64,000 nucleotides of DNA from Candidatus Moraniibacteriota bacterium (GCA_023133275.1 JAGLWU010000021.1:1341-65340), one strand, 5' to 3'. Shown: positions 26,749-61,262, counted from the first letter of the stretch. Made by a program: numbers and translations. Notes: generated by a model from the letters alone, not told the origin.

Positions 26749-26930
26749 GTGCTCGTCGCACGGGCTTTTGAGGTTTGCCAATGGCAAACCACTACAGATT
26801 TTTAAACTCCCTCAGACATATCATTCCAGAAAATAACTTTATAATAAAATGGAAAAATTATTTATCCGAAATCTATATTTTAAGATTTAAGAAAATTTAA
26901 AGCATAACATTCTTTCAGAATAACACACTA
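26749..26930. repeat. Mosaic palindromic intergenic repeat element (modules A+F+C+D), copy R1
   Basis: GTGCTCGTCGCACGGGC (26749-26765). Palindrome GGTTTGCCAATGGCAAACC (26772-26790). ATTTATCCGAAATCTATATTTTAAGATTTAAGAAAATTTAAA (a near-identical copy is at 45568-45609). CATTCTTTCAGAATAACAC. Confidence 0.8.
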
Positions 26931-27008
26931 AAAAAATTTTGAAAAATCACAATCACTACCAAATATCTCAAATAAAGAAATTGAAAATAGTTAAGTCAAT
27001 GATCAAAT

Positions 27009-28157
27009 TTATTCCTCTTTTTTAAAAGTCAAAAGAAAAAGCCCAACAATTATTGCTCCCACGAAAATAATCAAAGTCATTGGCAACCAAGAATGTCTTG
27101 CAAAAAATCGATTTTCTTCTTCATCGCAAACATCTCCAATGCCGTCGACATCTTCATCTTTCTGATAACGATTTGGATTATTTGGACAATTGTCATCAGG
27201 ATTCAAAACCCCATCACGATCAAAATCATCACACGCATCTCCCCGATCATTTCCATCAATATCCTTCTGATTTTCATTAGCAATTAAAACGCAATTATCA
27301 ATTTCATCTGAAATACCATCCTCGTCAGAATCCGCTTTTTTGTAAATAGAATTTAAATTAATGGTAACATTATTAATTTTCAAAATATCTTTATTACTTC
27401 GCAAATTTGGCATTTCACCAGTTTCAACTTTTGTATAAATATCCGCATTGTAATAAATACTGTAAGACTTTTCAGAATAAGCTAAAAACCTAACAGATTT
27501 ATTAACTTGCTGTAAATCAGTCGGATTAAAACTTATTTCTCTAATTCGCAAAGGTTGCGAGTACTCTAATTCAATCTTAAAATCTTTTGCAAATACTTTT
27601 GGAAAATTAATTGTACTAGATTTCATCGGAGATTTAGCAAAAATAATTTTTTCAGCTTGACTTTCCTTGTCGTAAATAGAAATTTTAATCGTCTTTGGTA
27701 AAGCAACATATTTGTCAAAATTAAAAGTCAATGAAAAAGTTGAGACATTCTTGTCCGCAGAAATATTTATAGAAACTTTACTAATTTGTCCATCATCAGA
27801 AACAGAATATTCTTCAAAAGTATCTTTATTCTCATCCACTAATTGTGAATCATATTTACTTTTAAAATTAACTTTTTTAACTTCGCTTTTGGAAATAACT
27901 AAACTTGGCACAAATGAATTATCTGAATCATCCACTGTTGCCACGCTATTTAAAATTTCTTTTTCAAAATTTATCGGAACTTCTACCACTGTTGGCACTT
28001 TGATATTTTGTTTTGAAACACTTATTACAGATTGAAAAGATTCTAACGAATTTTCCTCCACTTTTTTATCATTAACATCACTTTTTTTATTTTCAGCTAA
28101 AACCAATGAACTGAAACTAAAAAATATCAACAAAAAACCTAAAAAAATTTTATTCAT
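27009..28157 (-). CDS. Secreted thrombospondin type 3 repeat (Ca-binding) protein with C-terminal LPMTL + hydrophobic + KKEE anchor
   Basis: Signal peptide. C-terminal DSDEDGISDEIDNC...DIDGNDRGDACDDFDRDGVLNPDDNCPNNPNRYQKDEDVDGIGDVCD (TSP3 DxDxDGxxDxxDNC repeats). Ends WLPMTLIIFVGAIIVGLFLLTFKKEE. Confidence 0.65.
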   Translation of the reverse strand: MNKIFLGFLLIFFSFSSLVLAENKKSDVNDKKVEENSLESFQSVISVSKQNIKVPTVVEVPINFEKEILNSVATVDDSDNSFVPSLVISKSEVKKVNFKSKYDSQLVDENKDTFEEYSVSDDGQISKVSINISADKNVSTFSLTFNFDKYVALPKTIKISIYDKESQAEKIIFAKSPMKSSTINFPKVFAKDFKIELEYSQPLRIREISFNPTDLQQVNKSVRFLAYSEKSYSIYYNADIYTKVETGEMPNLRSNKDILKINNVTINLNSIYKKADSDEDGISDEIDNCVLIANENQKDIDGNDRGDACDDFDRDGVLNPDDNCPNNPNRYQKDEDVDGIGDVCDEEENRFFARHSWLPMTLIIFVGAIIVGLFLLTFKKEE

Positions 28158-28198
28158 AAAAACGTAAATTTAAATTTTATAGCTACACAAATTTTTAT

Positions 28199-30076
28199 TT
28201 ATTTCTTTTTTCTCTCCAAAAAAACTGTGCTAATCAATAATCCACCGACAATAAATAATGTGATAATTCTCTGCACAATATCCATCTCCCAAAATTCCAC
28301 AAAGAATACTCGGGCAATCACAATTGCAAACAATAAATCTCCCACAATTCTCAAAGCCATATTACCACCTGTCTTTCCAACAACATAAAAATAAATTCCA
28401 ACTAAAGTATAAATAATCAAAGAAATCATTATGGCGATTTCAGTATTTATGTTAAAAGATAGACAAATTAAATGTGCCACGATCCAAACTAAAACAGTCG
28501 CATACATTCCTCCAATCGCCAAAAATGTTCGCAAAACAAATCTTTGTTCGATAGAAATTGACTTATTTTTTCTGGCTGAAAAATATAATATACTAATTCC
28601 AATTAAAAACGTTGCCAAACAAATATAAAATACTACAAATAAATTTTCAGAATTATTTAAATGACTACTTACAGTAGGTGTTGGTTCTTTAATTACAGCT
28701 ATATATTCAAACAATTCTGCAACATTGATTAAAGACATCACCGCTGGAATTCCAAAAATTAAAACGCTGGAAAAATTAATTGAAGGCAACTTTTTACTAA
28801 ATGATAAAGCTATCCAAAAGATAATTACTAACGTAAATTCTGTAATCAAAGCAATAGTTAATGCAAAACCTTCTAATTCAATTGCTGTTGCCGTTGCTAA
28901 TAAAGTTAACGAAACAACTGAATACATTGAAACAGGATGACGTGAAGCGGAAAATTTGTATAAAACGAAAGAACCAACTGCGAAAATAAATGCTCCCAGC
29001 AAAACAAACATACTTATCAAATCTTTAGGAGCTACCATGCCCATCCACATCAAGAATAATAAACCCGTCCCAGCTGAAACAAATAAGTCAGCAAAAGTAA
29101 TTTTTTTGGATGACATTAAAGCAACTACGTTTGCAAAATAGAAAACTGCTGTAAATATAAAAGAAAAAACTAAATTGATAGTATCCCTGTCAAATCCTTT
29201 AACTACATAAAAAATCAAAGAATAAATAGTTACTACAAAAAGTGAAATCACTGTTAAAGTTCGCCACTTAGTTTTATAAACTGTCCATAAAGTTCCTGAA
29301 GTCAAAACGAAAAGATAAAGAAAAAATGTATTTATTTCAATCTTACCTAAAACAAAAACCGGAACGATTGCCCCTAAAAGATAAGTTACCACGCCGAAAG
29401 AAAGATTTTTTTGTTTCATCGACATAGCTGCTAAAAATGTCACCACTAAAAGTGAAACTACAAGTGCCGCCTCCACAGGAAAAAGCTCATAAATTACTAC
29501 ACCTGAAATATTTGCCACTAAAACAGAAATGCCTCCGACAATCATTAATACATTTCCTTGGACTTTACTTTTGAACGAACGAAATGCTCCGATAATTAAA
29601 AGTACAATTCCAAAAAGCAATCCTAGAAAAATCCTTCCCTCTGGACTAATCCAATCATTTCGAAAAGTGTAAGACACAAACCAACCGATTGCCGAAATTA
29701 CCAAAAAAGCCCCGACTTTCATTGGCCAATCTTTCGCCAGCCAAATGAAAAACTTTGTGATAAAATCTTCTTCATATTTTTTCTCCACAAAATTATTTTC
29801 AGTTTCAAGACTCTTTTTAAGATTTTGTTGGATTTCGTGATATTCATCTTTTCCCTCATTAAATCCATCGCTAGAAATTGGTCGAGAAAGAAAACCTTTT
29901 TCAATATTAACGGGCTTCGTGAAATCTGAAATATTTTTAGTAGACATTTTACTTTCCGCAAAATTTTTTGCTTGTTTTTTAATTAAACTTTCTAGCTTAT
30001 CTATTCTGTTATTTAAATTAGTATAAATTATGATTATCATTACACTAACCATAATTACCAATATTACTCCAATCAT
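28199..30076 (-). CDS. Large polytopic membrane protein with N-terminal coiled coil (DUF2339-like?)
   Basis: 625 aa. TM1, then a coiled coil (NRIDKLESLIKKQAKN), then about 16 TM helices. Family assignment from memory only. Confidence 0.35.
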   Translation of the reverse strand: MIGVILVIMVSVMIIIIYTNLNNRIDKLESLIKKQAKNFAESKMSTKNISDFTKPVNIEKGFLSRPISSDGFNEGKDEYHEIQQNLKKSLETENNFVEKKYEEDFITKFFIWLAKDWPMKVGAFLVISAIGWFVSYTFRNDWISPEGRIFLGLLFGIVLLIIGAFRSFKSKVQGNVLMIVGGISVLVANISGVVIYELFPVEAALVVSLLVVTFLAAMSMKQKNLSFGVVTYLLGAIVPVFVLGKIEINTFFLYLFVLTSGTLWTVYKTKWRTLTVISLFVVTIYSLIFYVVKGFDRDTINLVFSFIFTAVFYFANVVALMSSKKITFADLFVSAGTGLLFLMWMGMVAPKDLISMFVLLGAFIFAVGSFVLYKFSASRHPVSMYSVVSLTLLATATAIELEGFALTIALITEFTLVIIFWIALSFSKKLPSINFSSVLIFGIPAVMSLINVAELFEYIAVIKEPTPTVSSHLNNSENLFVVFYICLATFLIGISILYFSARKNKSISIEQRFVLRTFLAIGGMYATVLVWIVAHLICLSFNINTEIAIMISLIIYTLVGIYFYVVGKTGGNMALRIVGDLLFAIVIARVFFVEFWEMDIVQRIITLFIVGGLLISTVFLERKKK

Positions 30077-30168
30077 ATTTTGTTATTTATTATAATTAAA
30101 TTTTTTTATACTGTTCATCACACACTTAAAATGATTTAAAAAAACATACAAAAATAAAATTTAAAAAA

Positions 30169-31128: not shown

Positions 31129-31295
31129 AAAATTATATTTTTTAAAATTTAACCTTTTTTATTATACTACATAATTTTACTGAATAAATTTATTTCACTT
31201 AATTTAAGTGATCAAAAGAAGAAGTCAAACGAAAAATTTTAAATTTAACTATGATATAATAAAATCAATCTAAAAAATCCTAAACAAAAAAACCA

Positions 31296-32150: not shown

Positions 32151-32325
32151 GTGCTCGCCGCACGGGCTTTTCTGAACAAGAGATTACAACTCCTTGTTGA
32201 AATTCTAAAATATTTTTGTTATCTAAATTTTCCGTTATTTAAGTTTACTGTCATTCTGAACGGATTTAATTCTTCACTACATAATTTTTATTTCATAAAA
32301 ATTACTTCATTCAGAATGACAAATT
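32151..32325. repeat. Mosaic palindromic intergenic repeat element (modules A+B2+C/C' inverted pair), copy R2
   Basis: GTGCTCGCCGCACGGGC at 32151-32167. TTCTGAACAAGAGATTACAACTCCTTGTTGAAATTCTAAAA. CTGTCATTCTGAACGG (32249) and its inverse CATTCAGAATGACA (32308). Confidence 0.8.
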
Positions 32326-32603: not shown

Positions 32604-32604
32604 A

Positions 32605-35115: not shown

Positions 35116-35221
35116 TTTGTATTAGTCTACTTTAAATTATACAGAATTTTTTTGATCTTGACAAAGCCTGTTAATTATTTGAATGTTAAAAAATATAATA
35201 ATTAAATTGTAACATAAAAAA

Positions 35222-35256
35222 TTGACTTGACATAATAATAATAATATAAATTTACA
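35222..35256 (+). promoter_or_regulatory. Promoter cassette copy a: TTGACtTGACA + (AAT)4 + TATAAAT
   Basis: cTTGACAtaataataataatataaat. Same cassette at 44122, 52582, 57121 and 62421. Confidence 0.55.
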
Positions 35257-35300
35257 CTGGAGCTTTAGTTATCATACTAACTTTTACCAAAGAGGATGTT

Positions 35301-35645
35301 ATGAAAACATTTACTAAAACTGAATATTTCTTTCAGCAAGTTCTTTTGAGTATCAAAGAGTTAAAAAAAAGAACTTTTAGCCCAGGTATTAAAGTGACGC
35401 GTTTTTATGAAAAAAATAAATGTACAGGGATCTCGATGAATTTCATCGAGATAAATGGGAGGCATGAGGAAATAAAAGAAATTGAAGAAAGTATTGAAAT
35501 AAACTGTCCAATGAAATATTGGGAATGCAACAACGCATTTTTCAATTATCAAGGTTTTCATAATTCTCCAAATCGAAGTTATCCAAAATTTGGAAAAACC
35601 GAGGATGGAAGAAGTTGGGAATCACAACTTCAAGTTCCTATGTAG
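35301..35645 (+). CDS. Hypothetical small Cys-containing protein (cassette-driven ORF a)
   Basis: 114 aa. AGAGGA RBS-like sequence. Followed by the terminator at 35666-35707. Confidence 0.45.
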   Translation: MKTFTKTEYFFQQVLLSIKELKKRTFSPGIKVTRFYEKNKCTGISMNFIEINGRHEEIKEIEESIEINCPMKYWECNNAFFNYQGFHNSPNRSYPKFGKTEDGRSWESQLQVPM

Positions 35646-35665
35646 CTGACTACAACCAGCAAAAA

Positions 35666-35707
35666 GCCCGCAAACCTCGAAAGGAATGCGGGCATCTTTT
35701 ATTTTTG
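35666..35707 (+). terminator. Rho-independent terminator
   Basis: GCCCGCA-aacctcgaaaggaa-TGCGGGC followed by ATCTTTTATTTTTG. Confidence 0.7.
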
Positions 35708-35736
35708 AATCTTAAAAACTTTTTACTTTAAATTTC

Positions 35737-36924
35737 CTAACTAATTATAATCTTCCGAAAAAACTTTTTCCCAACTTTCAAAACTTTTTCATTGTCATTT
35801 TCAGAAATAATATATTTTACATCAGAAACTTTTTCACCATCAATAGAAACACCACCTTGTTCAATCTTCCGCCTCGCATCACCTTTACTATTTGCTCCAC
35901 CAGAATTAACCAAAAAATCTAAAATACTTTCACCATTTTTAACTTTAAATTTCTCAACATCATCAACAACATTCTTTTCAATAAATTTCTTTCGCAAAAA
36001 TTCCGTTTCGCCACCTGCAATTTTCTCATCATAATAAATAGAAATAATAGCTTGAGCCAATTTAATTTTCTGCTTCCGTTTATCCTCTATTTTTAAAATT
36101 TCCGCAACTTCGCCCAAATCAATCCGTGTACAATGCACAAAATAATCCTCAATAACATCATCAGGCATGTTCATAATTTTCTCACCCATCTCCCTCGCAG
36201 GATCCGTAAGATTAATCGTATTTCCCCAACTACTACTCATCTTCCGACCATCCATCCCAGAAATAATATTAGTCATTATAATATCTTGTGGCTCTTGATC
36301 AAATTTACCCTGCAAAGTTCGCCCCGCCAAAAGATTGAAACGCTGATCAGTTCCACCCAATTCAACATCCGCCCGCACAGCTACACTGTCATAGCCCTGC
36401 ATTAACGGATATAAAACTTCACGCAAAGAAACTCGCTTCCCCGCGTCTAAACGCTTCTTAATATTATCTCGAGAAATAAATTCATGCACAGAAAAACAAT
36501 CAGCATGTTCACCAATTTCTTTGTAACTCAATTTATCTAACCAATCTGCATTATAAACAACTTCAACTTTTTTAATGTCTAAAATTTTTGCCGCCTGTTC
36601 TTTATAGCTTTTCATATTTTCTTCAACCATTTCATGAGTTAACATTGGTCGCTCCGAATCTTTATCAGAAGTATCACCAATCACACCCGTCGCATTTCCA
36701 ACAAGTAAAACAATTTGATGACCAAGTTTTTGAAAGTCTAAAAGCTTAAGTAAAGGCACAGCTCTTCCCAAATGCAAATTTGAACTTGTCGGATCAATTC
36801 CAAATTTAATTCTCAATTTTTCTCCAGACAAAAGTTTTTTTCGTAAATTTTCTTTTCCAATAATCTCATCCGCTCCCCGCTCTAAAATTTCATCAACTTT
36901 TTTTTCCAATTCTTTTTTATCCAT
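35737..36924 (-). CDS. tyrS: Tyrosyl-tRNA synthetase with C-terminal S4 domain
   Basis: Class I HIGH-type motif (SSNLHLGRAV). KMSKS variant (KMSSS). GTDQ. C-terminal S4-like RRKIEQGGVSIDGEKV. Confidence 0.9.
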   Translation of the reverse strand: MDKKELEKKVDEILERGADEIIGKENLRKKLLSGEKLRIKFGIDPTSSNLHLGRAVPLLKLLDFQKLGHQIVLLVGNATGVIGDTSDKDSERPMLTHEMVEENMKSYKEQAAKILDIKKVEVVYNADWLDKLSYKEIGEHADCFSVHEFISRDNIKKRLDAGKRVSLREVLYPLMQGYDSVAVRADVELGGTDQRFNLLAGRTLQGKFDQEPQDIIMTNIISGMDGRKMSSSWGNTINLTDPAREMGEKIMNMPDDVIEDYFVHCTRIDLGEVAEILKIEDKRKQKIKLAQAIISIYYDEKIAGGETEFLRKKFIEKNVVDDVEKFKVKNGESILDFLVNSGGANSKGDARRKIEQGGVSIDGEKVSDVKYIISENDNEKVLKVGKKFFRKIIIS

Positions 36925-37008
36925 ACAATATCAATTAACTTATTTTCTAATTCGTAGAGACAAGGCATGCCTTGTCTCTACAGTCAAAAAACAATTCGAA
37001 TTACCAAT

Positions 37009-37584
37009 CTAATAATTTTCCACAAAAAGTTCAAAGTGAGCCTGCGAATGAGCACATGACGGGCATTCCTCTAAAGCATCAGTTCCCTCATGTAAATAAC
37101 CACAATTTTGACATTTCCAAATAACTTTCTCCTCCCGTTTAAAAACCTTTCCGTTCTCAACATTTGCCAACAACTTCAAATAACGAGTTTCATGAGCCTT
37201 TTCAACTTTCGCGATATTTCGCCAAACCATCGCAATATCCACAAAACCCTCTTCCTCCGCAATATCCGCAAAAGCTGGATACAATTCCGTCCATTCTTCA
37301 TTTTCACCTTCAACCGACGCTTTCAAATTTTCCGCAGTCGTTCCAATTTTTCCCGCTGGATAAGTTGCTGTAATTTCCACCATTCGCCCTTCTAAAAACT
37401 TAAAAAAACGTTTTGCATGTTCTTTTTCATTTAAAGCTGTTTCTGCAAAAAATACTGAGATTTGTTCAAAGCCGTCTTTTTTCGCCTGCTTTGAAAAATA
37501 GTCATAACGCATCCGAGCTTGTGATTCTCCTGCAAATGATTTTAATAAATTTTGCTCCGTCTGTGTTCCTTTTAAACTTTCCAT
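37009..37584 (-). CDS. rbr: Rubrerythrin
   Basis: Ferritin-like diiron four-helix region (EKEHAKRF...EGENEEWTELY...EKAHETRY). C-terminal rubredoxin-like CQNCGY...CPSC. Confidence 0.85.
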   Translation of the reverse strand: MESLKGTQTEQNLLKSFAGESQARMRYDYFSKQAKKDGFEQISVFFAETALNEKEHAKRFFKFLEGRMVEITATYPAGKIGTTAENLKASVEGENEEWTELYPAFADIAEEEGFVDIAMVWRNIAKVEKAHETRYLKLLANVENGKVFKREEKVIWKCQNCGYLHEGTDALEECPSCAHSQAHFELFVENY

Positions 37585-37663
37585 AGTTTTATTTTTTAAT
37601 AATTATTTTACTGTAATTAATAGTATCATCTCTTGAAAAATAAATAAAGAGAGAAAATTTCAT

Positions 37664-37692
37664 TTGACTTATTTTAAAAATTTAGTTATATT
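37664..37692 (+). promoter_or_regulatory. Canonical sigma70-type promoter for the 28-aa peptide gene
   Basis: TTGACT (37664-37669), a 17-nt spacer, then TATATT (37687-37692). SD AAGGAGG lies 6 nt before the ATG. Confidence 0.6.
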
Positions 37693-37726
37693 TACTTATC
37701 ATCAAAAAAATAAAAGGAGGCACATT

Positions 37727-37813
37727 ATGGATTTTGGAGAATGGATCCTGCTCACTGTTGCAACACCAATAATAGCGTACACACTGTATCGTGTTTTCAC
37801 TCTTAAAGGGTGA
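37727..37813 (+). CDS. 28-aa hydrophobic peptide (type I toxin-like small membrane protein)
   Basis: MDFGEWILLTVATPIIAYTLYRVFTLKG. Perfect SD. Noticeably higher GC than its surroundings. An antisense ORF-like frame on the minus strand. Confidence 0.5.
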   Translation: MDFGEWILLTVATPIIAYTLYRVFTLKG

Positions 37814-37916
37814 ACTCCTGATGAATGTTCCTCAGGTGAAGAACAAAAAGACAATAACGCATGAGTTGCCAGCAGTTTGTAACACATGCATTTTTTAATT
37901 TATTTTCAAAAAAAGT

Positions 37917-37960
37917 GCTCGCCACACAGGTTTTTAAAACTACAAGCCCAATTTAAACAA
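37917..37960. repeat. Repeat module A2 (GTGCTCGCCACAnnnnTTTTnAAAAnTACAAGnC), copy R3
   Basis: About 80% identical to 56090-56135. Confidence 0.6.
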
Positions 37961-38398
37961 ACTTAAGTCACCACTTAATTCACTCTTTATCAAACTTTCA
38001 ATATTAATATTATCAGCTAATTTTATATTAAAATTAAAAGTAAAATTATCTTTAGCCTCTTTATCATCTCTTTCAATACCTTCTATTATATCTACACCAT
38101 GAGCTATAACATGAATATTATAAAATATTTCTCTACCATCTTTTGAAAAAAAATTATAAGAAATAAATCCTTTTTCCTCAAGATATTGTAAAGAATTATA
38201 AAGATTATAGAAGTTATTATCAGATATAATTAATAAATCCTTTTCTTCATCTTTCAATGGCTCAAATTTTAATTCATCTTTATCATTTATGAATTCAAGA
38301 TCAAAATTTAAACTAATATCATTTTCAATCCCTCTTCTACGTTTACGTTCATAAAAATACAAAAGTAAATCACCCGAAATTTTCTTAATCGTTTTCAT
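37940..38398 (-). CDS. Hypothetical protein
   Basis: 152 aa ORF. No motif recognised. Confidence 0.4.
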   Translation of the reverse strand: MKTIKKISGDLLLYFYERKRRRGIENDISLNFDLEFINDKDELKFEPLKDEEKDLLIISDNNFYNLYNSLQYLEEKGFISYNFFSKDGREIFYNIHVIAHGVDIIEGIERDDKEAKDNFTFNFNIKLADNINIESLIKSELSGDLSLFKLGL

Positions 38399-38423
38399 AA
38401 AATCTAAATTATTAATTACAAAT

Positions 38424-39473
38424 TTATTTAATCACTAACTTTTCAATCCCCAGCATCTCTTCCCCAATCAAAAAACTCAACATCGCACCACCACCAGTCG
38501 ACACAAAAGAAATATCCTCCCAATAACCACTCTCCGCCAAAGCCTGCACACTCTCCCCACCACCAATCAAACTAAAAGCATCTTTATTCCCCGCTACAAA
38601 CTTAACCAATTCCCGAGTTCCAATATCATAAGGCTTTTCCTCAAATTTACCCATCGGACCATTCCACACAATCGTTTTCGCCTGCTCAATTTTTTCCCGA
38701 AAAAGCTCAATCGTTTTTGGACCAATATCCAAAGTTTCGCCCGTAAAATCCACTGGCAAAATAACCTTTTCCGAAAAATTAATCCCCTGTTCAATTGCTT
38801 CAACCGCCACTCGTCCACCAACCAAAACATAATTATAACTTTTTTCAAACATCTTAATCAAAGGTAATTTAGTCGCAATTTTTGACCCACCAATAATCGC
38901 CACCGCTGGACGTTTTTGTAAATTTTTAACTTTTTCTAAATTTTCAATTTCCTTTTGTAACCAAATTCCACCAAATGATGGAAGAATATCAGTAATTACA
39001 TAAAGAGACGCATGTCCACGATGATCAACGCCAAAAGAATCATTCACATAAATATCAAATGGTTCAGCCAACTTTTTTGCAAATTTAACATCACCTTTTT
39101 TCTCGCCAGAATAAAAACGAACATTTTCCAAAAGAATAATTTGATTTTCACCATTTTCAATTTCACCTTTCACTTTTTCACCAATACAATCATTCGCAAA
39201 AAAAACTTTTCTTTTCAAAATTCTTTCAACATCGTCAGCAATTTGTTTTACCGAAAATTCTGGTTTAATCTCACCATCCGGACGACCAAAATGAGTCAAC
39301 AAAGCAATTTTTCTCGCTCCATTTTCAATTAACCATTCTAAACTTTCTTTGGCAGCAAGAATTTTATGCGACTCAATCACATCACCTTTTTCATCAAGCG
39401 AAACATTAAAATCAACTCTCAATAAAACATTTTTTCCATTCACATCAGCGTTTTGTATTTTTTTAATATTCAT
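38424..39473 (-). CDS. pgk: Phosphoglycerate kinase
   Basis: N-terminal LLRVDFNVSL. Substrate-binding and hinge motifs. C-terminal IGGGESVQA...GGGAML. Start set at the internal ATG (MNIKKIQ...). The longer ORF would overlap dfx. Confidence 0.85.
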   Translation of the reverse strand: MNIKKIQNADVNGKNVLLRVDFNVSLDEKGDVIESHKILAAKESLEWLIENGARKIALLTHFGRPDGEIKPEFSVKQIADDVERILKRKVFFANDCIGEKVKGEIENGENQIILLENVRFYSGEKKGDVKFAKKLAEPFDIYVNDSFGVDHRGHASLYVITDILPSFGGIWLQKEIENLEKVKNLQKRPAVAIIGGSKIATKLPLIKMFEKSYNYVLVGGRVAVEAIEQGINFSEKVILPVDFTGETLDIGPKTIELFREKIEQAKTIVWNGPMGKFEEKPYDIGTRELVKFVAGNKDAFSLIGGGESVQALAESGYWEDISFVSTGGGAMLSFLIGEEMLGIEKLVIK

Positions 39474-39508
39474 AAATATTCTAAATTTAAAAAATTTATC
39501 ATTAAAAA

Positions 39509-39889
39509 TTATTTTATCGCTTTCCATAAACCATGCAAATTACAATACGCTCGAACTACAAAATCATCTGATTTGATAGCGAAAAATACCTCTGGCTGAT
39601 CACCAACTTTCAAAAAAACTTTCTGATTTTCACCACCAGCAATAATTTCAATCCACTCAATAAAATGATCCTCTTCCATCGGATGTGCCACTTCACCAAC
39701 TTTAATTTTAATTCCCCCCTTAATTTTTTCAACAACTGGAACATGCTTTTCAATCGTTGCATCTTCAATATTTTCAATCTGCAAATTCATCAGTTGATTG
39801 CAACAAACCAATTCCCCCACTCCAACATGATTAATTTGAACAATATTTCCACAAATTAAACATTTATAAACCTGATGTTTCTCAGTCAT
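39509..39889 (-). CDS. dfx: Desulfoferrodoxin (2Fe superoxide reductase)
   Basis: N-terminal desulforedoxin-like CxxC...CC (CLICGN...VCCN). SOR centre EKHVP...HPMEEDH...CNLHG. Confidence 0.85.
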   Translation of the reverse strand: MTEKHQVYKCLICGNIVQINHVGVGELVCCNQLMNLQIENIEDATIEKHVPVVEKIKGGIKIKVGEVAHPMEEDHFIEWIEIIAGGENQKVFLKVGDQPEVFFAIKSDDFVVRAYCNLHGLWKAIK

Positions 39890-39964
39890 ATTTTTATATT
39901 TTGAAAAATTACCATTTTATTATAACACAAACTTTTTACAAAAATTTTTAAATTATTTCCAATT

Positions 39965-40125
39965 GTGCTCGCCGCACGGACTTTTCACCATTTAACTTTT
40001 TTCGAAATTCTGAAACATTTCCGTAATATCTCTTGTCATTCAAATTACCTGTCATTCTGAACGTAGTAAATTTATTGCAGATAAATTTATGTAGTGAAGA
40101 ATCCCCCACAGAGAATCATAAAACT
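39965..40125. repeat. Mosaic repeat element (modules A+C+E), copy R4
   Basis: GTGCTCGCCGCACGGAC. CCTGTCATTCTGAACG. TTATGTAGTGAAGAATCCCCCACAGAGAATCATAAAAC (module E, also at 55949-55985). Confidence 0.75.
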
Positions 40126-40148
40126 TTAAAATTAAACAAAAAGTGAAT

Positions 40149-40865
40149 TTACTTCATCACCTGATTTTTCCAATCCTTCGGCATTTTCTCAATCGCATAA
40201 CGCAGAGCCGTTCGAGGCATAATTTTCTTATTTTTCAAAACAAAATCAAAAACTTCCTGAGAATAAATATTAGCTGCTTCTTTCAAAGTCCAACCATAAC
40301 CTTTTTGAACAAGATCGTCTTCATCTTGAATATCAATAAAATATTGCGAAACTTCAAAAATATTTTTTAAATAAATTTTTTCTTTTTGCTTTATGGAATG
40401 AATAAAAATAATACTCGCCGCCCGTCTCACCCAACGATTTTTTGACCTTCTCCATTTTTCAGTTTTCAATAAAAGTTCTGGAAAGGTAAAAATTAATTCG
40501 CCAAAAGCGTGCGTGCAAAAATCATCACATTTACTCCAAGTGTTTACATATTTTTTCAACCAATTTTCAAAAATAATAAAATCTGACTTTTTAAATTCGT
40601 CTTTTTTCTTTCTCGCCCAAGTAAAAGTGATTGTTGATTCTTCTAAATAATTTGATTTTAAAAGTTCTTCGCAAAGATTAAAAATTTCTTTTTTATTTAA
40701 ATCTTTTATTTTTTTCCAATGTTTGCTGGCAATTTTCCGCACAATTCCAGCACGCACACCATAAAGTTCAATCGGTTCTTTGAAAAATCTTTCTAAACCT
40801 TTCTTGTATTCTAAATCAATATTTTCTTTTAATTCTTTCCGAACTTTTTGTAAGTTTTTTTTCAT
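40149..40865 (-). CDS. DNA alkylation repair (AlkC/AlkD-like HEAT-repeat) protein
   Basis: Length and helical-repeat character. Motif region WVRRAASIIF...VQKGYGWTLKEAA is typical of the DNA_alkylation family. Confidence 0.55.
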   Translation of the reverse strand: MKKNLQKVRKELKENIDLEYKKGLERFFKEPIELYGVRAGIVRKIASKHWKKIKDLNKKEIFNLCEELLKSNYLEESTITFTWARKKKDEFKKSDFIIFENWLKKYVNTWSKCDDFCTHAFGELIFTFPELLLKTEKWRRSKNRWVRRAASIIFIHSIKQKEKIYLKNIFEVSQYFIDIQDEDDLVQKGYGWTLKEAANIYSQEVFDFVLKNKKIMPRTALRYAIEKMPKDWKNQVMK

Positions 40866-41127
40866 TTTACCTAAAATAATTTAGTTTATTTTAAACTTAG
40901 GACGCTTTTTTCTTTTAAAATAAACTTCTTCATCTAATTTTGGCAATTCAACAATACCTTTCTCTAACTCTACATTATTTTTCTCCTCATTATTATCAAC
41001 ATCAAATATCTTTCTTTGAATAAAATCTAATCTTTTTAAATCTAAAGTATTTGAAGACTTAATTGCAGCCACCATACTTTCACACAAATCTTCATTTGGA
41101 CTTATTTTAGCATAATCACTTATACGT

Positions 41128-44012: not shown

Positions 44013-44121
44013 ATTTAAATAAGTTTATTTTGATAAAAAAATTTTAAACGACTTATTTAAATAATAGTTTATAAATTGCCTTTTGTAAATTTATTTAAAG
44101 TTTTAAATCAAAAAATTCTAC

Positions 44122-44150
44122 TTGACATAATAATAATAATAATAATAATG
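44122..44150 (+). promoter_or_regulatory. Promoter cassette copy b: TTGACA + (AAT)7 + GTAAAC
   Basis: cTTGACAtaataataataataataataatgtaaac. Longest microsatellite of the five copies. Confidence 0.55.
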
Positions 44151-44235: not shown

Positions 44236-44373
44236 CATGAGAATGAAAGAAATGAGAGAATTAATCATTGTATTGCTTTGTCTATCAATACTATTCTTTT
44301 ATAAGGAAAACGATACTAATCCACCTAATACTACAACAAAAAAAATATTCAACTCTCGCACATCAAATAAGTA
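44236..44373 (+). CDS. 45-aa small secreted/membrane peptide (cassette-driven ORF b)
   Basis: MRMKEMRELIIVLLCLSILFFYKENDTNPPNTTTKKIFNSRTSNK. GGAGAAAG RBS. Terminator hairpin CCTAAAGCATA...TGCTTTAGG + T-run at 44380-44420. Confidence 0.5.
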
Positions 44374-44437
44374 AAACAAGCCTAAAGCATATAGATATTA
44401 TGCTTTAGGTTCTTTTTTATTAAAAAAGAAAAATTAT

Positions 44438-45429: not shown

Positions 45430-45640
45430 GTGCTCGCCGCACGGGCTTTTCTGAACAAGGGGTCATAACCCCTTGTTTAACCCCTACAAAATTATACGAC
45501 CCCCCGACCTGTCATTCCGAAAAATATATTTTCTTTCAGAGCGTAGTGATGAACTAGAAAATAATTTATCCGGAATCTATACTTTAAGATTAAAGAAAAT
45601 TTAAAATACAATACACTTCCTAAATTCCGGATAATTTTTT
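45430..45640. repeat. Mosaic repeat element (modules A+B1+C+D), copy R5
   Basis: GTGCTCGCCGCACGGGC. TTCTGAACAAGGGGTCATAACCCCTTGTTTAACC. CCTGTCATTCCGAAAAATA. ATTTATCCGGAATCTATACTTTAAGATTAAAGAAAATTTAAA. ATTCCGGATAA is the inverse of TTATCCGGAAT. Confidence 0.8.
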
Positions 45641-45879
45641 AAGTTTTTCGTAGAAAAATTTAAAAAATTTCCAAAGTGACAAGAGGGAAAGCATCAGAAA
45701 AACTTATTAGGATTTCTGTCTGCCTGTTGCAATAGGTAGACTTCACTTCTTTATTTTTTCTTACGAAAAAATAAATCCGCCTATCTGCCAACAAAGGCAA
45801 GTTTAGAATGACATGAAGTTTCAAAGTTTTAAATAAAATTTAACAAAATCAATAACAAAAAACAACCTTTCCAAAAAAT

Positions 45880-53001: not shown

Positions 53002-53093
53002 TGTGATTTGATTAGATTGAGAAGTCAGACCTCAAAAATCTGACTTCAGTAATTAAGCATTTCAAATTAATTTTTGGAATATTTATAGCTAAT

Positions 53094-53126
53094 AAAAAAC
53101 CACCAAATTTACTCGGTGGTTTTTTA
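53094..53126. terminator. Bidirectional rho-independent terminator between ORF c (+) and rplY (-)
   Basis: AAAAAACCACC-aaatttactc-GGTGGTTTTTT. U-runs on both strands. Confidence 0.7.
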
Positions 53127-53150
53127 TTTTTAAGAAGTTTTCAAAAAAGA

Positions 53151-53828
53151 TTATTTTTTCTCTTCTTTCTTTTCACCATTTTCATCTCCCTCAGGCACAT
53201 CTTCCGCAGCACCCTCAACTTTAGAAACATCAGCATCAACTTCCTCATCAAGAGATTCCATTTCAGCATCCGTTCGAGGCGGAGTTACCGAAGCAATCGT
53301 ATTTTTCTCATCAAGTAATAATTTAACTTTATCACCAACTTTAATATCACTAACAACAATATGATCTTCAAAATCAACAATTTTACTCAAATCAACCTCA
53401 ATTTCACTCGGCAAATCATCTGGCAAAGCCTCAACAACAACATGATCAAAACTCTTCACCAAAGTTCCACCTTTTTCCTTAACTGCTGGAGACTCCCCAA
53501 CAAAAACCAAAGGCACTTCAGCTTCTGTAGCTTCATTCATATTCACCTGAAGAAAATCAACATGCCTAATTTCATCAGAAACTGGTTCAGCCTGAAAATC
53601 ATGAATTAAAACATTCAACGCTTTTTCTTTACCAATTTTAAGTTCTACCACCGTATTTTTACCAGCTTCACCGAAAACTTGTATAAAATCATTTTTATCA
53701 ACCCAAACAACATTAGATTCCATTCCGACACCATAAACAATTGCAGGAATACGCTCTCCTACTAATTTACGCATAGGTCTTCCTGTTTCCTCACGTTTTT
53801 CTGCATTAAGCACTATTTTTTTACTCAT
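53151..53828 (-). CDS. rplY: 50S ribosomal protein L25 / general stress protein Ctc, with acidic C-terminal tail
   Basis: N-terminal LNAEKREETGRPMRKLVGERIPAIVYG. bL25 beta-barrel plus Ctc-type C-domain. Confidence 0.8.
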   Translation of the reverse strand: MSKKIVLNAEKREETGRPMRKLVGERIPAIVYGVGMESNVVWVDKNDFIQVFGEAGKNTVVELKIGKEKALNVLIHDFQAEPVSDEIRHVDFLQVNMNEATEAEVPLVFVGESPAVKEKGGTLVKSFDHVVVEALPDDLPSEIEVDLSKIVDFEDHIVVSDIKVGDKVKLLLDEKNTIASVTPPRTDAEMESLDEEVDADVSKVEGAAEDVPEGDENGEKKEEKK

Positions 53829-55828: not shown

Positions 55829-55985
55829 GTGCTCGCCGCACGGGCTTTTCTGAAACAATGGATCATGACCCCTTGTTGAAATTCTAAAAATTTTCTGTCA
55901 TTTTTACTGTCATTCTGAACGGAATAATTTTTATAAAATAAAAATTATGTAGTGAAAAATCCCCCACAGAACACCACGAAACATT
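55829..55985. repeat. Mosaic repeat element (modules A+B1+C+E), copy R6
   Basis: GTGCTCGCCGCACGGGC. TTCTGAAACAATGGATCATGACCCCTTGTTGAAATTCTAAAA. TGTCATTCTGAACGG. TTATGTAGTGAAAAATCCCCCACAGAACACCACGAAAC. Confidence 0.8.
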
Positions 55986-56089: not shown

Positions 56090-56135
56090 GTGCTCGCCAC
56101 AGAAACTTTTGAAAATACAAGTCAATTTCATGATT
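56090..56135. repeat. Repeat module A2, copy R7
   Basis: GTGCTCGCCACAGAAACTTTTGAAAATACAAGTCAATTT. Compare 37917-37960. Confidence 0.6.
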
Positions 56136-56167: not shown

Positions 56168-57127
56168 TTAATTTTTAACATCCAAATAAGCCCTCCTAAC
56201 CGCCAAATTAATTTTTGTCGGTCGAAATTTAACATCCAAATAATTCTTAAGCTTTCGCAAAAATAAATAAATATTCAAATAAATTTTCCAAAAACCCTTA
56301 CCGTGTTTACGAAAAAATAAAATACCTGATAAAACTAACCAATAAATTTTCTGCGACTGATTTTCCTCGCTTTGCTCTTGATGATAAACTTTTGCACTCG
56401 GAACAATCAAATTTTTCAATTCAGCTTTTTTCACTCGCAAAGATAAATCTGCATCCTCATAATAAAGAAAAAAAAATTCATCAAATAATCCAACTTTCTC
56501 AAAAACTTTTTTACTAATCAACATCGCACAACCTGTTACATATTCTGTTTCTTCTACATCTGTGTAGGGAACGGTTTGAAACCGTTCCCTACCAAACACG
56601 ACTTGAAACCATTTCCTACCAAACAATGATATACAATCAAAATGTTCCGCCCTCATTTTCCACCAATTTATTTTTCCACCACAGAACCAAATATTTTTAT
56701 ATTTTAAATCTGAATAAATCACAGGACTTACTAATCCAATTTCACTTTCATCTTTAATAGAATCAATCAATTTTGAAATTGTGTTTTTTCGCACCAATGC
56801 ATCATTGTTCAAAAGAAAAACATAATCTGCGCTATTTTCAAAAGCAAATTTTATACCAACATTATTTCCCGCTCCGAATCCGAGATTTTTTTTGTTTTTA
56901 ATAAAATAAATTTTTGAAAAGTTTTTTTCACTTGAACAATGGGTTGCAACCCATTGTTCAGCTAGATTTAAAGAATTGTCAGTAGAATTATTATCCACTA
57001 AAATTATTTCTAAATTTTGATAATTTGAATCAACTACACTTTTAATAGTTTTTAGTAAATCTGTTCCGCCATTGTAATTTAGAATTATGACAAATATTTT
57101 TGGTTTTTTTGGAATTGTACTTGACAT
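56168..57127 (-). CDS. GT2-family glycosyltransferase carrying an in-frame palindrome/tandem-repeat insert
   Basis: KIFVIILNYNGGTDLLKTIKSVVDSNYQNLEIILVDNNSTDNS (GT2 N-terminus). DxD YYEDAD. N-terminus MSSTIPKKPK shared with 61255..62427. Confidence 0.8.
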   Translation of the reverse strand: MSSTIPKKPKIFVIILNYNGGTDLLKTIKSVVDSNYQNLEIILVDNNSTDNSLNLAEQWVATHCSSEKNFSKIYFIKNKKNLGFGAGNNVGIKFAFENSADYVFLLNNDALVRKNTISKLIDSIKDESEIGLVSPVIYSDLKYKNIWFCGGKINWWKMRAEHFDCISLFGRKWFQVVFGRERFQTVPYTDVEETEYVTGCAMLISKKVFEKVGLFDEFFFLYYEDADLSLRVKKAELKNLIVPSAKVYHQEQSEENQSQKIYWLVLSGILFFRKHGKGFWKIYLNIYLFLRKLKNYLDVKFRPTKINLAVRRAYLDVKN

Positions 57128-57145
57128 AATAATAATAATTTAAAC
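57101..57145 (+). promoter_or_regulatory. Promoter cassette copy d (TTGACA + (AAT)4 + TTTAAAC), overlapping the divergent GT2 start codon
   Basis: tggtttttttggaattgtacTTGACAtaataataataatttaaac. The GT2 ATG is the reverse complement of the CAT inside TTGACAT. Confidence 0.55.
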
Positions 57146-57197
57146 TTACTTATTGGTGATAAACTGAACATTAACAAAAACATTAACGGAGGTCATC

Positions 57198-57596: not shown

Positions 57597-57741
57597 CCCG
57601 ACTCTATTTTGAGAATTTCTTCAAAAGACCTGTAGATAAGAATCTCATTTTGGAACCTATCAGAGTCTAAACCTGCACAATGTTCACGCCACCAACAAAA
57701 ACAGGTCTTGCAAAATCATGCGGAACCCGTTTTTAAATTTC

Positions 57742-58116
57742 CTAACTCTTAATCCCCAACCTCTTTTTCGCAATTTTATATTGTTTAGAATTCAACTGAC
57801 CTGCCTCACGCATTTCCTCGATTTGCTTCAACATTTTTTCCTTGTCTTCCCCACCTTTCTGACCCATCTTCCCAAACGCCTGAGCAAAAACTTCTTTCCG
57901 TTTTTCAGGACTCATTTTTTTCAAACCTTTAATTGCCATTTTTTGCATCATTCCCAATTTTGGCATTCCAGGCATTTCTCCTGCCAAAATCTGATCAATC
58001 ATTTCATCTGAAATTTCTGGAAGTTGTCCTCCCATAAAATCTTCTGCCTGTTTTTTAACCTGCACTGGATCAATATTTTGATCTTTTTTCTTCTTAAACA
58101 AATCTGTTATTCCCAT
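57742..58116 (-). CDS. Small Met/Lys-rich hypothetical protein downstream of secDF
   Basis: 124 aa. GMPKLGMMQKMAIKGLKKM low-complexity. No confident family. Confidence 0.35.
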   Translation of the reverse strand: MGITDLFKKKKDQNIDPVQVKKQAEDFMGGQLPEISDEMIDQILAGEMPGMPKLGMMQKMAIKGLKKMSPEKRKEVFAQAFGKMGQKGGEDKEKMLKQIEEMREAGQLNSKQYKIAKKRLGIKS

Positions 58117-58148
58117 ATTTTTAATGTTAAATTATTAATTCTTAGTTA

Positions 58149-60770
58149 CTATTTCTTATCTTTCTTATATCTAAAAATGCTAGCAATAAAAGCTGTTGCC
58201 ACGAACATTGATGAATAAGTCCCTGCAATCACACCAACTAACATTGCAATCGCAAAACTCTGCAATGACTCACCACCGAACAAAATAACTGATACCAACA
58301 CAACAACCACCGTAAGCGAAGTATTCATTGATCTCGCCAAAGATTCATTCAACGAACGATTCAACAACTTCTCAAATTTTCCAGTCTCTCGTGTACGAAT
58401 AACATTTTCCCGAATACGATCATAAACCACAATCGTATCATTCACAGAATAACCTAAAATTGTCAGCAAAGCCGCAACAAATGGAATTCCAATTTCAATA
58501 TTGTAAAAATAACCCAAAAATGCAAATACTCCCAACACAATAATTATATCATGAGTCAACGCCAATACCGCTCCAATACCATAATTCCAAGATGAAACAG
58601 GAAAAGAAACTTTACGAAAAGCTATAGCAATGTAAATCAGAATAGCTATCACCGAAAGAATAATCGCTTTGAACGCCCCGCTTTTTAATTGTTCAGAAAT
58701 AGTCGCTCCGATAAAATCAGTTCGTAATTGCTCAGCCTGAGGATCGATTTCTCTCACTGCCGTTAAAACTCTTTGATTAAATTCTTCACTCGCTTGTTTG
58801 TATCGAATAATAATGTGATTATTATCACTCTCTTGCAAAGTAAAACTTTCATTGCAACCATCTTCACCTATGATTTGACAAACTTTTTCCGTATCTGGCA
58901 TTCCAATACCATCTGAAATTTTAAACTCAGTCAAAGTTCCACCAACAAAATCAATTCCTAATTTTAAGCCGAAATTTGAAAGTGCAAAAATACTTATTCC
59001 AATCAAACCAGCTGAAAAAATGTAAGTAAACTTTCTCTTATTAATAATTTGCAAAAACTTTTTTTCTTTAGCATTTTCAATTTCAACCTTTTTCTTAAAA
59101 CCAAAAATTAACCAAGTATTATTTTCTAACCAATCTCGAGAAATAAATTTAACAATAATTTTCACTAAAACAATCGCCGTGAACATTGAAATCAACACAC
59201 CAATAATCAAAATTAAAGCAAAGCCTTTCACAAAACCAGCGCCGATCATCATCAAGATGAAAGATGTAATAATCGTAGAATAATTACCATCACGAATAGA
59301 TGACCACGCACGTTCAAAACCTTCGTTCACTGAATATTTCAAAGATTTTCCTTTTTTCAATTCTTCCTTGATTCTTTCAAAAATGAGAATATTTGCATCC
59401 ACCGCCATACCAACGGATAAAATAAGTCCCGCAATTCCTGCTAAAGTTAAAGTAATTGCCATTCCTTGAGGCATCGTTCCTGAAATTTTAAAAATTGAAA
59501 CAATGGTCGTTGCATAAATCATCAAAGCTACTGCCGCCACAACACCAAATACTCGATAATAAAAAATCATGTAAATCATCGTCAAAATCAAACCGATCAA
59601 TCCAGCTTTCAGTCCCATAGCCAAGGATTCCATTCCCAATGATGCTCCAATACTCTGCTGTGAAACTAATTTAATTGGCACTGGCAATGCACCCTCATTC
59701 ATTCTTTTCACTAAATTTTTTGCCTCTTCAACCGTAAAATTTCCACTAATCACCGCTTGACCTGTTGTAATTTCATCGTTGACAACTGGTGCACTTATTA
59801 CTTCATTATCAAGAAAAATAGCTACCGTTTTTTCTAAATTTCGTTTTGTAATTTCTGCAAAAAGTTTTGTACCCTCATCATTAAATTCTAAACTAACACT
59901 TGGAGTACCTAATCCAACTCCGCCACCAGAAAAACTAACATCCGCTCGCTCCAAGTGTTTTCCATCCAAATCAGTCGCTTTATATTTTTCTGGAACTTTT
60001 TTAAAAAAATCTAAAGAATATAAAATTTTTGCTTTAATTTTTTTTTCTTCTCCCTCACCTTGAGTCTCTAATTTCTTAACAAGCAAATAACTTTCGTCTG
60101 TTTCAAGTATTCCATTGTACACAGAACCATTATTTAAATCATCTGAAAAAATAACATCATCAATAGAACTTGATAATTGTCCTTTTTCAAAAAATTGCAA
60201 ATCCTCATCAGAAATATTTAAACCAATCTTTGTATTTTCTTCATTGTAAATATCATCAAAATTCTCACCATTATTAATTCTATCCAAAACTGCTTGAGCA
60301 TTCTTTTTTACAAATTGCTCATTCACAGAAACATAAATTTTCTTTTCTTCCTCCAATTCTTCCTCAGTTTTTTCCTCTCTAAATTGTAAAAATGGAGTTT
60401 TATCAATCACATTTTTCACATCTGCAACATCCTCCGCTCCAGGAAATTCTACAATAAGAAAATTCTGATCACCACGTTTTGCATGCTGAACAACTGGCTC
60501 ACCAACACCATAAGCATTTACTCGCCGCTCAACAACCGCTTGCACAGAATCAATCGCTTCACCTTTTTTATCATCAGGAACTTGCGACAAATCCATTTCA
60601 TATTCAAGGTGTAATCCTCCCTGTAAATCAAGTCCCAAATTAATTTGAAATTTATCTAAACTCTCTTGAGCTTTCGCGGGTAAGTATGGTATTTTCGGCA
60701 CTGCAATTCCGCCCACCAATATTGCGAAAAGTACCACTAAAATAAACTTTTGTCTAATTTTCTTATTCAT
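58149..60770 (-). CDS. secDF: Protein translocase subunit SecDF (fused)
   Basis: SecD N-terminus (LGLDLQGGLHLEYEMD). Large periplasmic domain. Two 6-TM bundles. SecF start region GIDFVGGTLTEF. 873 aa. Confidence 0.9.
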   Translation of the reverse strand: MNKKIRQKFILVVLFAILVGGIAVPKIPYLPAKAQESLDKFQINLGLDLQGGLHLEYEMDLSQVPDDKKGEAIDSVQAVVERRVNAYGVGEPVVQHAKRGDQNFLIVEFPGAEDVADVKNVIDKTPFLQFREEKTEEELEEEKKIYVSVNEQFVKKNAQAVLDRINNGENFDDIYNEENTKIGLNISDEDLQFFEKGQLSSSIDDVIFSDDLNNGSVYNGILETDESYLLVKKLETQGEGEEKKIKAKILYSLDFFKKVPEKYKATDLDGKHLERADVSFSGGGVGLGTPSVSLEFNDEGTKLFAEITKRNLEKTVAIFLDNEVISAPVVNDEITTGQAVISGNFTVEEAKNLVKRMNEGALPVPIKLVSQQSIGASLGMESLAMGLKAGLIGLILTMIYMIFYYRVFGVVAAVALMIYATTIVSIFKISGTMPQGMAITLTLAGIAGLILSVGMAVDANILIFERIKEELKKGKSLKYSVNEGFERAWSSIRDGNYSTIITSFILMMIGAGFVKGFALILIIGVLISMFTAIVLVKIIVKFISRDWLENNTWLIFGFKKKVEIENAKEKKFLQIINKRKFTYIFSAGLIGISIFALSNFGLKLGIDFVGGTLTEFKISDGIGMPDTEKVCQIIGEDGCNESFTLQESDNNHIIIRYKQASEEFNQRVLTAVREIDPQAEQLRTDFIGATISEQLKSGAFKAIILSVIAILIYIAIAFRKVSFPVSSWNYGIGAVLALTHDIIIVLGVFAFLGYFYNIEIGIPFVAALLTILGYSVNDTIVVYDRIRENVIRTRETGKFEKLLNRSLNESLARSMNTSLTVVVVLVSVILFGGESLQSFAIAMLVGVIAGTYSSMFVATAFIASIFRYKKDKK

Positions 60771-60955
60771 ATTGTTTGTAATTTATTAAATTTCTTTGAA
60801 AAAAATTCTGCTTTATCATAAAACATTTTCGCAAACTATCTTTTGTAATTTTAACTAAGATGAATTTAAAAATATTTATCACACGATAAAAACAAAACTC
60901 GATAATTTCAAGCTTTTTTTATTCTACTATAAAAACTTAAGATTGTCATATTTTG

Positions 60956-61262
60956 TGCTCGCCGCACGGGCTTTTCAACAAAAGGTCATGGTCCCTTGTT
61001 GAAATTCTAAAACATTTTTGTTATCAAAATTTTAGGTTTGCCACTGGCAAACCCCTACAATTTTTTATCATTTAAGTTTCTTGTCATTCTAAACGGATTT
61101 ATTTTTTCTTTAGAAAAAATAAAGGAATGAAGATTCCCTCACGAAAAATCATTAAACTTTAAATTTACTAAAAGTATCAGAAAAACTTATCTAGATTCTT
61201 CACTTCATAAATTTTTTTACAAAAAATTTATTTCGTTCAGAATGACAGGAAATTTTAAAATT
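60956..61262. repeat. Mosaic repeat element (modules A+B1+F+C/C' inverted pair), copy R8
   Basis: GTGCTCGCCGCACGGGC. TTTTCAACAAAAGGTCATGGTCCCTTGTTGAAATTCTAAAA. GGTTTGCCACTGGCAAACC. TGTCATTCTAAACGG (61092) and inverse CGTTCAGAATGACAGG (61237). Confidence 0.8.

Follow-up and report, generated by a model that had tools for sequence, protein, structure and literature searches.

Repetitive extragenic palindromic (REP) sequences and bacterial interspersed mosaic elements (BIME), together with their REP-associated tyrosine transposases (RAYT, RayT or TnpA-REP), have been described as the REP/BIME of E. coli, the REPINs of Pseudomonas and the SMAG of Stenotrophomonas (PMC3733652, PMC2817692, PMC3116915, PMC8266576). 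A GTAG REP is defined by the GTAG tetranucleotide at the end of its stem-loop (PMC3733652, PMC8266576), the GTAG strand being the one recognised by RayT in vitro (PMC8266576), and elements of the IS200/IS605 group use the lagging-strand template (PMC6006769). REPs lying in frame within protein genes are known from other phyla, including the Rickettsia palindromic elements (RPE), among which RPE-4 and RPE-6 have been equated with CGTC REPs (PMC3733652). Here we analyse a 64-kb stretch of DNA from a Candidatus Moraniibacteriota bacterium (GCA_023133275.1, JAGLWU010000021.1:1341-65340; ~30% GC, genes largely on the minus strand), hereafter the window, in which eight loci, R1 to R8, carry combinations of recurring sequence modules. 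We think it probable that these loci belong to a lineage-specific, REP/BIME-type population of non-autonomous hairpin elements in Moranbacteria, within the candidate phyla radiation (CPR), which is copied or moved by RayT-type enzymes. Our literature search found no report of REP/RAYT in CPR/Patescibacteria.

The initial annotation of the window had read R1 to R8 as mosaics of seven modules (A, B1, B2, C, D, E and F) forming a family of dispersed palindromic repeats of the BIME or RPE kind, an interpretation that is essentially right but incomplete. A pattern check recovered B1, B2, C, D, E and F where they had been placed, and A as well, while direct and inverted repeat searches tied the eight loci into one family. 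When up to 3 mismatches were allowed, module A (GTGCTCGCCGCACGGGC) was found 8 times, always on the plus strand, none being expected from 100 shuffles. The doubt whether the modules recur elsewhere has been removed, as the family was found ~90 times in 464 kb of a sister genome and also in other relatives. Recurrence, compensatory changes in the stems, a GTAG REP module, RayT genes flanked by family members and in-frame insertions into protein genes, all set out below, support the core of that reading.

The window derives from a Candidatus Moranbacteria metagenome-assembled genome (MAG), and an NCBI protein of such a MAG is the same, residue for residue, as the glycosyltransferase encoded at 61255..62427. 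The distribution of the family was assessed by searching 185,579 genomes, each representing one species, for A followed by TTTT. This retrieved 62 loci, 58 of them in a single Moraniibacteriota MAG, HOU_bin.0114, a sister species whose coding DNA is ~85% identical to that of the window. The sister-genome sample used throughout consists of 58 blocks of 8 kb fetched via an exact 21-mer match, and holds ~93 copies of A along with tens of hairpin units. Besides this species the family is present in at least four further relatives, and module A in at least six genomes. The contigs of two of these relatives (L064 and L069) have a first base that coincides with A' (positions 1-18 in each); since they are independent short-read contigs, the repeat evidently breaks assemblies. 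A third further relative has A together with the same modules. An AT-rich contig (29.5% GC) from a MAG labelled Methylococcales (L043, JAGLUC010000165.1) carries a Moranbacteria A-G-C-E composite, and because this composite is the only DNA that it has in common with the window and in view of its base composition, it is probably the mis-binned contig of a CPR relative. Outside this lineage the family was not found, the matches being GC-rich and due to chance; a metagenome scan for A returned only a GC-rich terminator, also by chance, a match which revealed that a generic hairpin, GCCC-GTGC-TCGCC-GCAC-GGGC, contains A as its 3' two-thirds. BLAST comparison of R8 gave nothing among phages and one chance match of ~55 bp among plasmids. 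The family thus recurs widely, but inside a narrow lineage.

Both the hairpin census of the window and the sister-genome sample revealed short palindromic units in high copy, mostly extragenic. Module F (GTAGGGGTTTGCCAGTGGCAAACC, at 26772 and 61035) displays, when read on the minus strand, GTAG and a 9-bp stem, and is by the definition given above a classical GTAG-tagged REP. The tag is found also on symmetric GTAG...CTAC palindromes at 10684, 36954 and 56564, a class of 28-29 nt with several subfamilies whose 14-bp arms stay perfectly complementary through double changes. C and E turned out to be the two arms of one ~63-nt hairpin with outer arms conserved in sequence and an 11-bp inner stem that varies in sequence at constant geometry. 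Compensatory substitution is equally evident in this unit: across 27 copies 97.7% of cells were paired, versus 84.6% in shuffles and at most 53% with slid partners, and nine pairs were altered on both sides (58 cells). D is a hairpin related to that of C and E, and B is a 28-nt palindrome, TGAACAA...TTGTTCA, with two main perfect variants. The description of the modules as palindromic holds for B, for C plus E and for the GTAG units, and fails for A, whose best hairpin (a 4-5-bp stem, -6 kcal/mol) is no better than that of shuffled sequence (z = 0.01). A further component is a small GC palindrome of 20-22 nt (CCTGCCTGTCGGCAGACAGG) which sits at fixed insertion points of other modules and of itself, namely directly behind the sequences GTGAAG (module E), GAAC (module C) and GTG (module A, GTG^CTCG), as well as inside its own copies; it was found in C-E copies of different subtypes and has two insertions in the window. 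Recurrent linkers (GAAATTCTAAAA..., TTTTCACCATT... and TATGATACA) lie between modules.

A tblastn search with an E. coli RAYT sequence as query identified two RayT candidates in the sister genome, L011 7222..7764 and L055 4975..5481, both scoring above the curated Pfam cut-off for Y1_Tnp; JGI gives homologues of the L011 protein the name 'REP element-mobilizing transposase RayT'. A GTAG palindrome lies upstream of the L011 gene and recurs in frame within the gene itself, and A' follows 16 nt past its stop. The L055 gene is accompanied by a frameshifted duplicate, the two being flanked by inverted hairpins of a further multi-copy family (~11 copies by k-mer count), and A' lies ~115 nt downstream. 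At L058 a RayT N-terminal remnant adjoins a RayT-2 hairpin doublet, a D unit and A. A comparable tblastn search for IS608-type TnpA retrieved nothing.

Some details of these loci deserve mention in their own right. The in-frame GTAG...CTAC palindrome of the RayT gene (L011 7455-7482; L070 ~3273-3302) separates the HUH motif of the transposase from its C-terminal half (VGAYxNTPL); a VGA..PL-like segment occupies this position in homologues from several phyla, one of which shows an expansion into NTPLR repeats. The L055 duplication is segmental (4845-7511) and comprises RayT, A' and the first codons of a downstream peptidase-like gene, one RayT copy being frameshifted.

The orientation of the repeats was examined with the contig coordinates of the sister-genome blocks and their GC skew. 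All window copies of module A, and 72 of 86 in the sister genome, are on the lagging nascent strand, and this polarity reverses together with GC skew at ~112-120 kb of contig c5, which is 374 kb long. This same interval of CALNYG010000005.1, in which the sign changes for GC skew, for gene strand and for the orientation of A, is a probable replication origin. Of 23 copies between convergent or divergent genes, 19 nevertheless match the replichore (two-sided binomial p ~0.003). Asymmetric GTAG REPs behave in a similar way, with GTAG on the lagging-strand template in 10 out of 11. An orientation that follows the replication strand fits single-strand DNA transposition.

The content of orthologous sites changes between species. 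In the syntenic comparison of window 35200-40900 with L018, A with its 30-nt tail is present in one species only, as is one GTAG palindrome; another such palindrome, intergenic at 36954..36981, is perfect in the window and decayed in the sister genome, and the same spacer can be filled by different composites. R8 is missing at the orthologous site in both L064 and L065. The A copy upstream of dnaJ is orthologous in the window (R6) and in the sister genome (L003), the modules that follow it being different.

The modules also reach into protein genes. The initial annotation had placed them in intergenic DNA, and copies in coding DNA were detected at 12398-12550, 13217, 56564, 56933 and 61786, so that confinement to spacers does not hold. 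In three window genes the reading frame is kept on both sides of the insertion, and these coding insertions are confirmed by paralogues or orthologues that are free of them or carry other modules. The interdomain linker of a GT4 glycosyltransferase (61255..62487, minus strand; EQGVMTPCSEKGGCG in the window) contains at 61762..61813, in plus-strand direction, a decayed A-like stretch and a perfect B1 palindrome (61786-61813). Different modules occupy this same position in seven relatives: B in the window and in L068, two B in L064, a GTAG REP in L065 and L067, and a C-E-like unit in L066 and L069, the linker being short in distant homologues. The GT2 gene 56168..57127 (minus strand) has two in-frame sites. 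A perfect 28-nt B-type palindrome at 56933..56960, translated within EQWVATHCS, corresponds to B in all three species with differences compensated, whereas the site of the perfect GTAG...CTAC palindrome at 56564..56592 holds a different GTAG palindrome in L064 and a B palindrome in L065; EQWVATHCSSEK is a predicted peptide of this element-bearing protein.

In the third gene, ORF (open reading frame) 11723..13843 on the minus strand, which encodes a 706-aa membrane protein, two tandem B units and a C/E-like remnant (12398..12550, plus strand) lie in frame within an insert of ~70 aa. Two window paralogues are devoid of the insert, and homology to them picks up in frame on both sides of it. An A copy with 1 mismatch at 13217..13233 (plus strand) is also in frame in this ORF and encodes ..CPCGKH... 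The three paralogues (2256-4220, 11723-13843 and 14626-16488, all on the minus strand) have 620-706 aa, are 33-34% identical and look membrane-embedded; the 706-aa protein, the only one scanned, gave no Pfam match at E 0.001.

Module A is the left end of most composites, 17 nt long, non-palindromic and strand-polar, with an A-rich 5' flank and usually TTTT on its 3' side, and it occurs only as singlets. From 67 exact 21-mer matches we estimate a density of ~1 per 12-18 kb. Several roles for A were considered and discarded. Its neighbours are unrelated (sortase, desulfoferrodoxin, Na/Ca exchanger, DnaJ and SecDF), which speaks against a regulon operator. A -35 element or other fixed part of a promoter is at odds with A-to-ATG distances from 23 to more than 140 nt and with real extended -10 promoters at varying distances. 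Its short stem, with a folding energy no better than that of shuffles, and the 64 of 89 copies that face the start of an opposite-strand gene do not suit an intrinsic terminator. DNA uptake sequences (DUS/USS) are found about once per kb, in both orientations and frequently in coding DNA; the density of A, the 84% of copies in one orientation and the 3% located in ORFs do not agree with this pattern.

These observations favour the proposal of a population of REP/BIME-type elements served by RayT. It would consist of coexisting and mutually nesting families, i.e. GTAG REPs (F) and GTAG...CTAC palindromes, B, the C plus E and D hairpins, the small GC palindrome and A, whose members RayT-type Y1/HUH transposases would copy or move in the form of single-stranded DNA hairpins. 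As with IS200/IS605 and REP/RAYT systems, the enzymes would act at the replication fork, where the lagging-strand template is exposed to them, and copies would then persist in spacers, or in tolerant protein loops and linkers when the frame stays open. Our inference is that RayT mobilises every one of the modules, and that A marks the end of an element or serves as a recognition site instead of being a signal of the host; a few copies or more may have been recruited secondarily as transcript boundaries.

A number of points weigh against this proposal. No RayT gene lies within the window, there are only two independent intact RayT loci, and the link between A and RayT could be a coincidence (p ~0.01 by a rough estimate). 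The defining GTAG tag is restricted to F and the GTAG palindromes, being missing from A, B, C-E and D. Comparison of filled and empty orthologous sites, of which few clean empty ones were available, uncovered neither target-site duplication nor a clean excision footprint. Module A has no convincing hairpin of its own and stands alone, with no adjoining hairpin module, in 62 of 98 copies. Finally, retrieval of the sister-genome loci through an exact 21-mer accounts for part of its near-invariance there, only 4 of the 9 copies in the unbiased window being perfect.

The modules could instead be chiefly host RNA elements, such as terminators, mRNA-stabilising 3' hairpins or insulators, conserved for their structure and not mobile, an explanation that we regard as unlikely. 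It would account for the covariation of the hairpins, for the location of A 3-60 nt past the stop where the 5'-side gene is on the same strand, for the frequent presence of A' immediately upstream of extended -10 promoters and for the ordinary terminator at window 35660-35710, a position where the sister genome (L018) has A. Moreover, A together with its T run passes a minimal terminator scan on the plus strand. The T run is missing, however, in 13 of 98 copies, and the weak hairpin of A contrasts with the 8-12-bp stems of ordinary terminators here. In addition, decayed B palindromes have A·C mismatches as often as G·T, an RNA-specific G·U asymmetry being absent from them and unclear in C-E units; orientation tracks the replichore and not the neighbouring genes; and both the in-frame copies in genes and the turnover of content at orthologous sites are hard to reconcile with immobile RNA structures.

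It is tempting to speculate, in a reading that we hold to be improbable, that A is a conserved, replication-strand-polar host signal of 17 nt which serves as a landing pad for hairpin modules, the 20-22-nt GC palindrome being an autonomous-looking, self-nesting and site-specific mobile unit, among the smallest known. If true, spacers and protein linkers would be under constant rewriting in a supposedly streamlined genome.

A plainer version, in which A is a strand-polar DNA signal selected by the host (an uptake sequence or a replication/segregation motif) beside which hairpins merely gather, seems to us quite improbable. A is indeed the best-conserved module across its genomes, its strong polarity and its A-rich and T-rich flanks would suit such a signal, and it is found mostly alone. 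On the other hand, its density is roughly a tenth of that of known uptake sequences, it is nearly absent from coding DNA (3 of 93 copies), it is present or absent at orthologous sites, and a sub-lineage of A marked by one and the same 20-nt insertion has reached at least 8 loci, a spread that an element undergoing copying would be expected to show.

Lastly, Correia-like miniature inverted-repeat transposable elements (MITEs) derived from a DDE-type insertion sequence (IS), with the C motif (TGTCATTCTGAAC) as terminal inverted repeat (TIR), would explain the inverted C pairs in R2 and R8 and could draw on the multicopy ISL3-like IS of the sister genome, but they are very improbable, as the ends of that IS (GGCTCTTTAACATC...) resemble no module, no matching DDE transposase or target-site duplication was found, the presumed TIRs are two arms of one hairpin with a covarying inner stem, and replication-strand polarity is not expected of cut-and-paste transposition of double-stranded DNA. 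The Correia comparison of the initial annotation is not borne out. The 165-nt sequence GGCTCTTTAACATC...ATGCAAAAAAAAGAGATT... was counted ~13 times in the sister-genome loci and is not found in the window; by its appearance it comprises the terminus of such an ISL3-like IS together with a start codon.

With regard to the individual loci in the window, all of which are given in plus-strand direction, R8 (60955..61258) is the fullest composite and contains A, B1 (60975-61000), a linker, F as a GTAG REP on the minus strand (61035-61058) and C-E units in forward (61081-61136) and reversed (61194-61245) orientation; it occupies the whole gap between the secDF promoter and the GT4 stop. R1 (26749..26930) comprises A with 1 mismatch (26749-26765), F again as a minus-strand GTAG REP (26772-26795) and a long hairpin unit of D type (~26810-26902). 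R2 (32151..32325), where C-E units are also found in opposite orientation, opens with A and continues with a B2 palindrome (32175-32198), a single C arm (32248-32263) and a C-E hairpin unit in reversed orientation (32268-32319). R4 (39965..40125) has A with 1 mismatch, a 'G' linker (TTTTCACCATTTAAC..GAAATTCTGAAA) and a C-E hairpin unit (40049-40113). In R6 (55829..55985) A, which lies 30 nt upstream of the ATG of dnaJ on the opposite strand, is followed by a B1 palindrome (55855-55878) and then by a C-E unit (55907-55971). In R5 (45430..45813) A is joined by a B1 palindrome (45452-45479), by a D unit (~45508-45606) and by a C-E unit in reversed orientation (~45705-45813) into which two GC palindromes of 22-25 nt are nested (~45716-45740 and ~45779-45800). 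R3 (37915..37960) and R7 (56090..56135) hold nothing but degenerate A copies, that of R3 with 3 mismatches and a short tail and that of R7 strongly degenerate (GTGCTCGCCACAGAAAC), with a tail common to both.

The family had been assigned to 26749-61262; it extends to 10684 (an intergenic GTAG...CTAC palindrome at 10684..10711 with 1 mismatch), 12398-12550, 13217 and 61786, and R5 runs on to ~45813. The palindrome at 36954 lies within that range but outside the eight loci, and came from the hairpin census. Nor are the loci situated mostly 3' of genes or between convergent or divergent genes, as 7 of the 8 lie between co-directional genes and only R2 between convergent ones. The claim that they are the GC-richest non-coding DNA is valid against the background (28-39% GC for R1 to R8, 23.7% for other intergenic DNA and 31.3% for coding sequence), although other spacers are equally GC-rich; with these values, the term GC-rich applies only to the element cores.

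Other features of the window were noted apart from the repeats. A promoter-like repeat (TTGACATAATAATAATAAT...) appears in near-identical form on the plus strand at 35216-35251, 44111-44146, 57110-57145 and 62397-62437, preceding small plus-strand ORFs among minus-strand genes; one of these encodes a hydrophobic peptide of 45 aa (44238-44375) and is followed by a strong terminator (44379-44411). Judging from sequence, such ORFs may constitute a peptide family whose members are small, are secreted or reside in the membrane, and have a strong promoter in common. No tRNA or tmRNA genes are found in the window, and Rfam 15 gave no match in it at gathering score, those obtained at a permissive threshold (E up to 5) being at chance level. 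Weak psRNA14 and Phe_leader matches fall on both strands at 53068-53166, at a 15-bp hairpin (53091-53128) between A and T runs, and are most simply attributed to a bidirectional terminator after the L25 gene.

The genomes of CPR/Patescibacteria are small and usually called streamlined. A dense and actively turning-over population of REP-like elements would carry REP/RAYT biology into a new phylum, an extension supported by the RayT partner, the replication-strand polarity and the repeated in-frame decoration of glycosyltransferases and of a membrane protein. The family would also offer a compact natural system for studying hairpin nesting and the tolerance of proteins to insertions, and its repeats may help to flag mis-binned contigs, for which L043 is a candidate.

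Compared with known systems, the elements resemble REP/BIME-RAYT in being short, high-copy and mostly extragenic hairpins with several families per genome and occasional intragenic copies, in the GTAG tag 5' of the stem (module F), and in forming inverted pairs and mosaics with conserved linkers; RayT genes are flanked by family members in the sister genome, an arrangement that would correspond to a REPtron or TIRtron. REPINs, in which two inverted REPs and a spacer make one long hairpin and doublets are better conserved than singlets, may have a partial parallel in the single 63-nt hairpin of C-E, with its conserved arms and covarying inner stem, and in the RayT-2 hairpin doublet of L058. The elements depart from REP/BIME-RAYT in their host, a CPR bacterium of ~30% GC, in the many GTAG units that are perfect symmetric GTAG...CTAC palindromes instead of a hairpin with an unpaired tag, and in the commonest module, A, which is non-palindromic, untagged and strand-polar, the activity of RayT here being a prediction from sequence. 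With the Rickettsia RPE they share palindromic repeats set in frame in protein genes as peptide segments of tolerated regions; unlike RPE, to which there is no apparent sequence relationship, they are smaller modular units (28 nt upward), and a given protein site can hold one module in one species and another in the next.

Cyanobacterial small dispersed repeats (SDR), reportedly described by Elhai et al. in 2008 in a work cited by PMC3116915, are likewise palindromic elements of ~20-25 nt nested in other repeats and in their own copies; they belong to another phylum and have another sequence, while insertion points here are a few fixed positions of the host modules. Pneumococcal BOX elements, with their fixed A-B(n)-C order, and Neisseria Correia elements, with 26-bp TIRs and a TA duplication, are also intergenic repeats of modular or mosaic build that can form hairpins and lie near promoters and terminators, although those defining traits are not seen here. 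From IS200/IS605 and their gene-less derivatives (PATEs) the comparison retains a Y1/HUH enzyme, dissimilar hairpin-bearing ends, the lack of target duplication and orientation to the lagging-strand template (PMC6006769), whereas the enzymes found here resemble RayT and not IS608 TnpA, and no left-end/right-end pair or target tetranucleotide was derived. Taken one by one, every feature of these loci has a precedent in REP/BIME elements and their REPtrons, in RPE or in cyanobacterial SDR; A and the self-nesting 20-nt palindrome are the more interesting parts.

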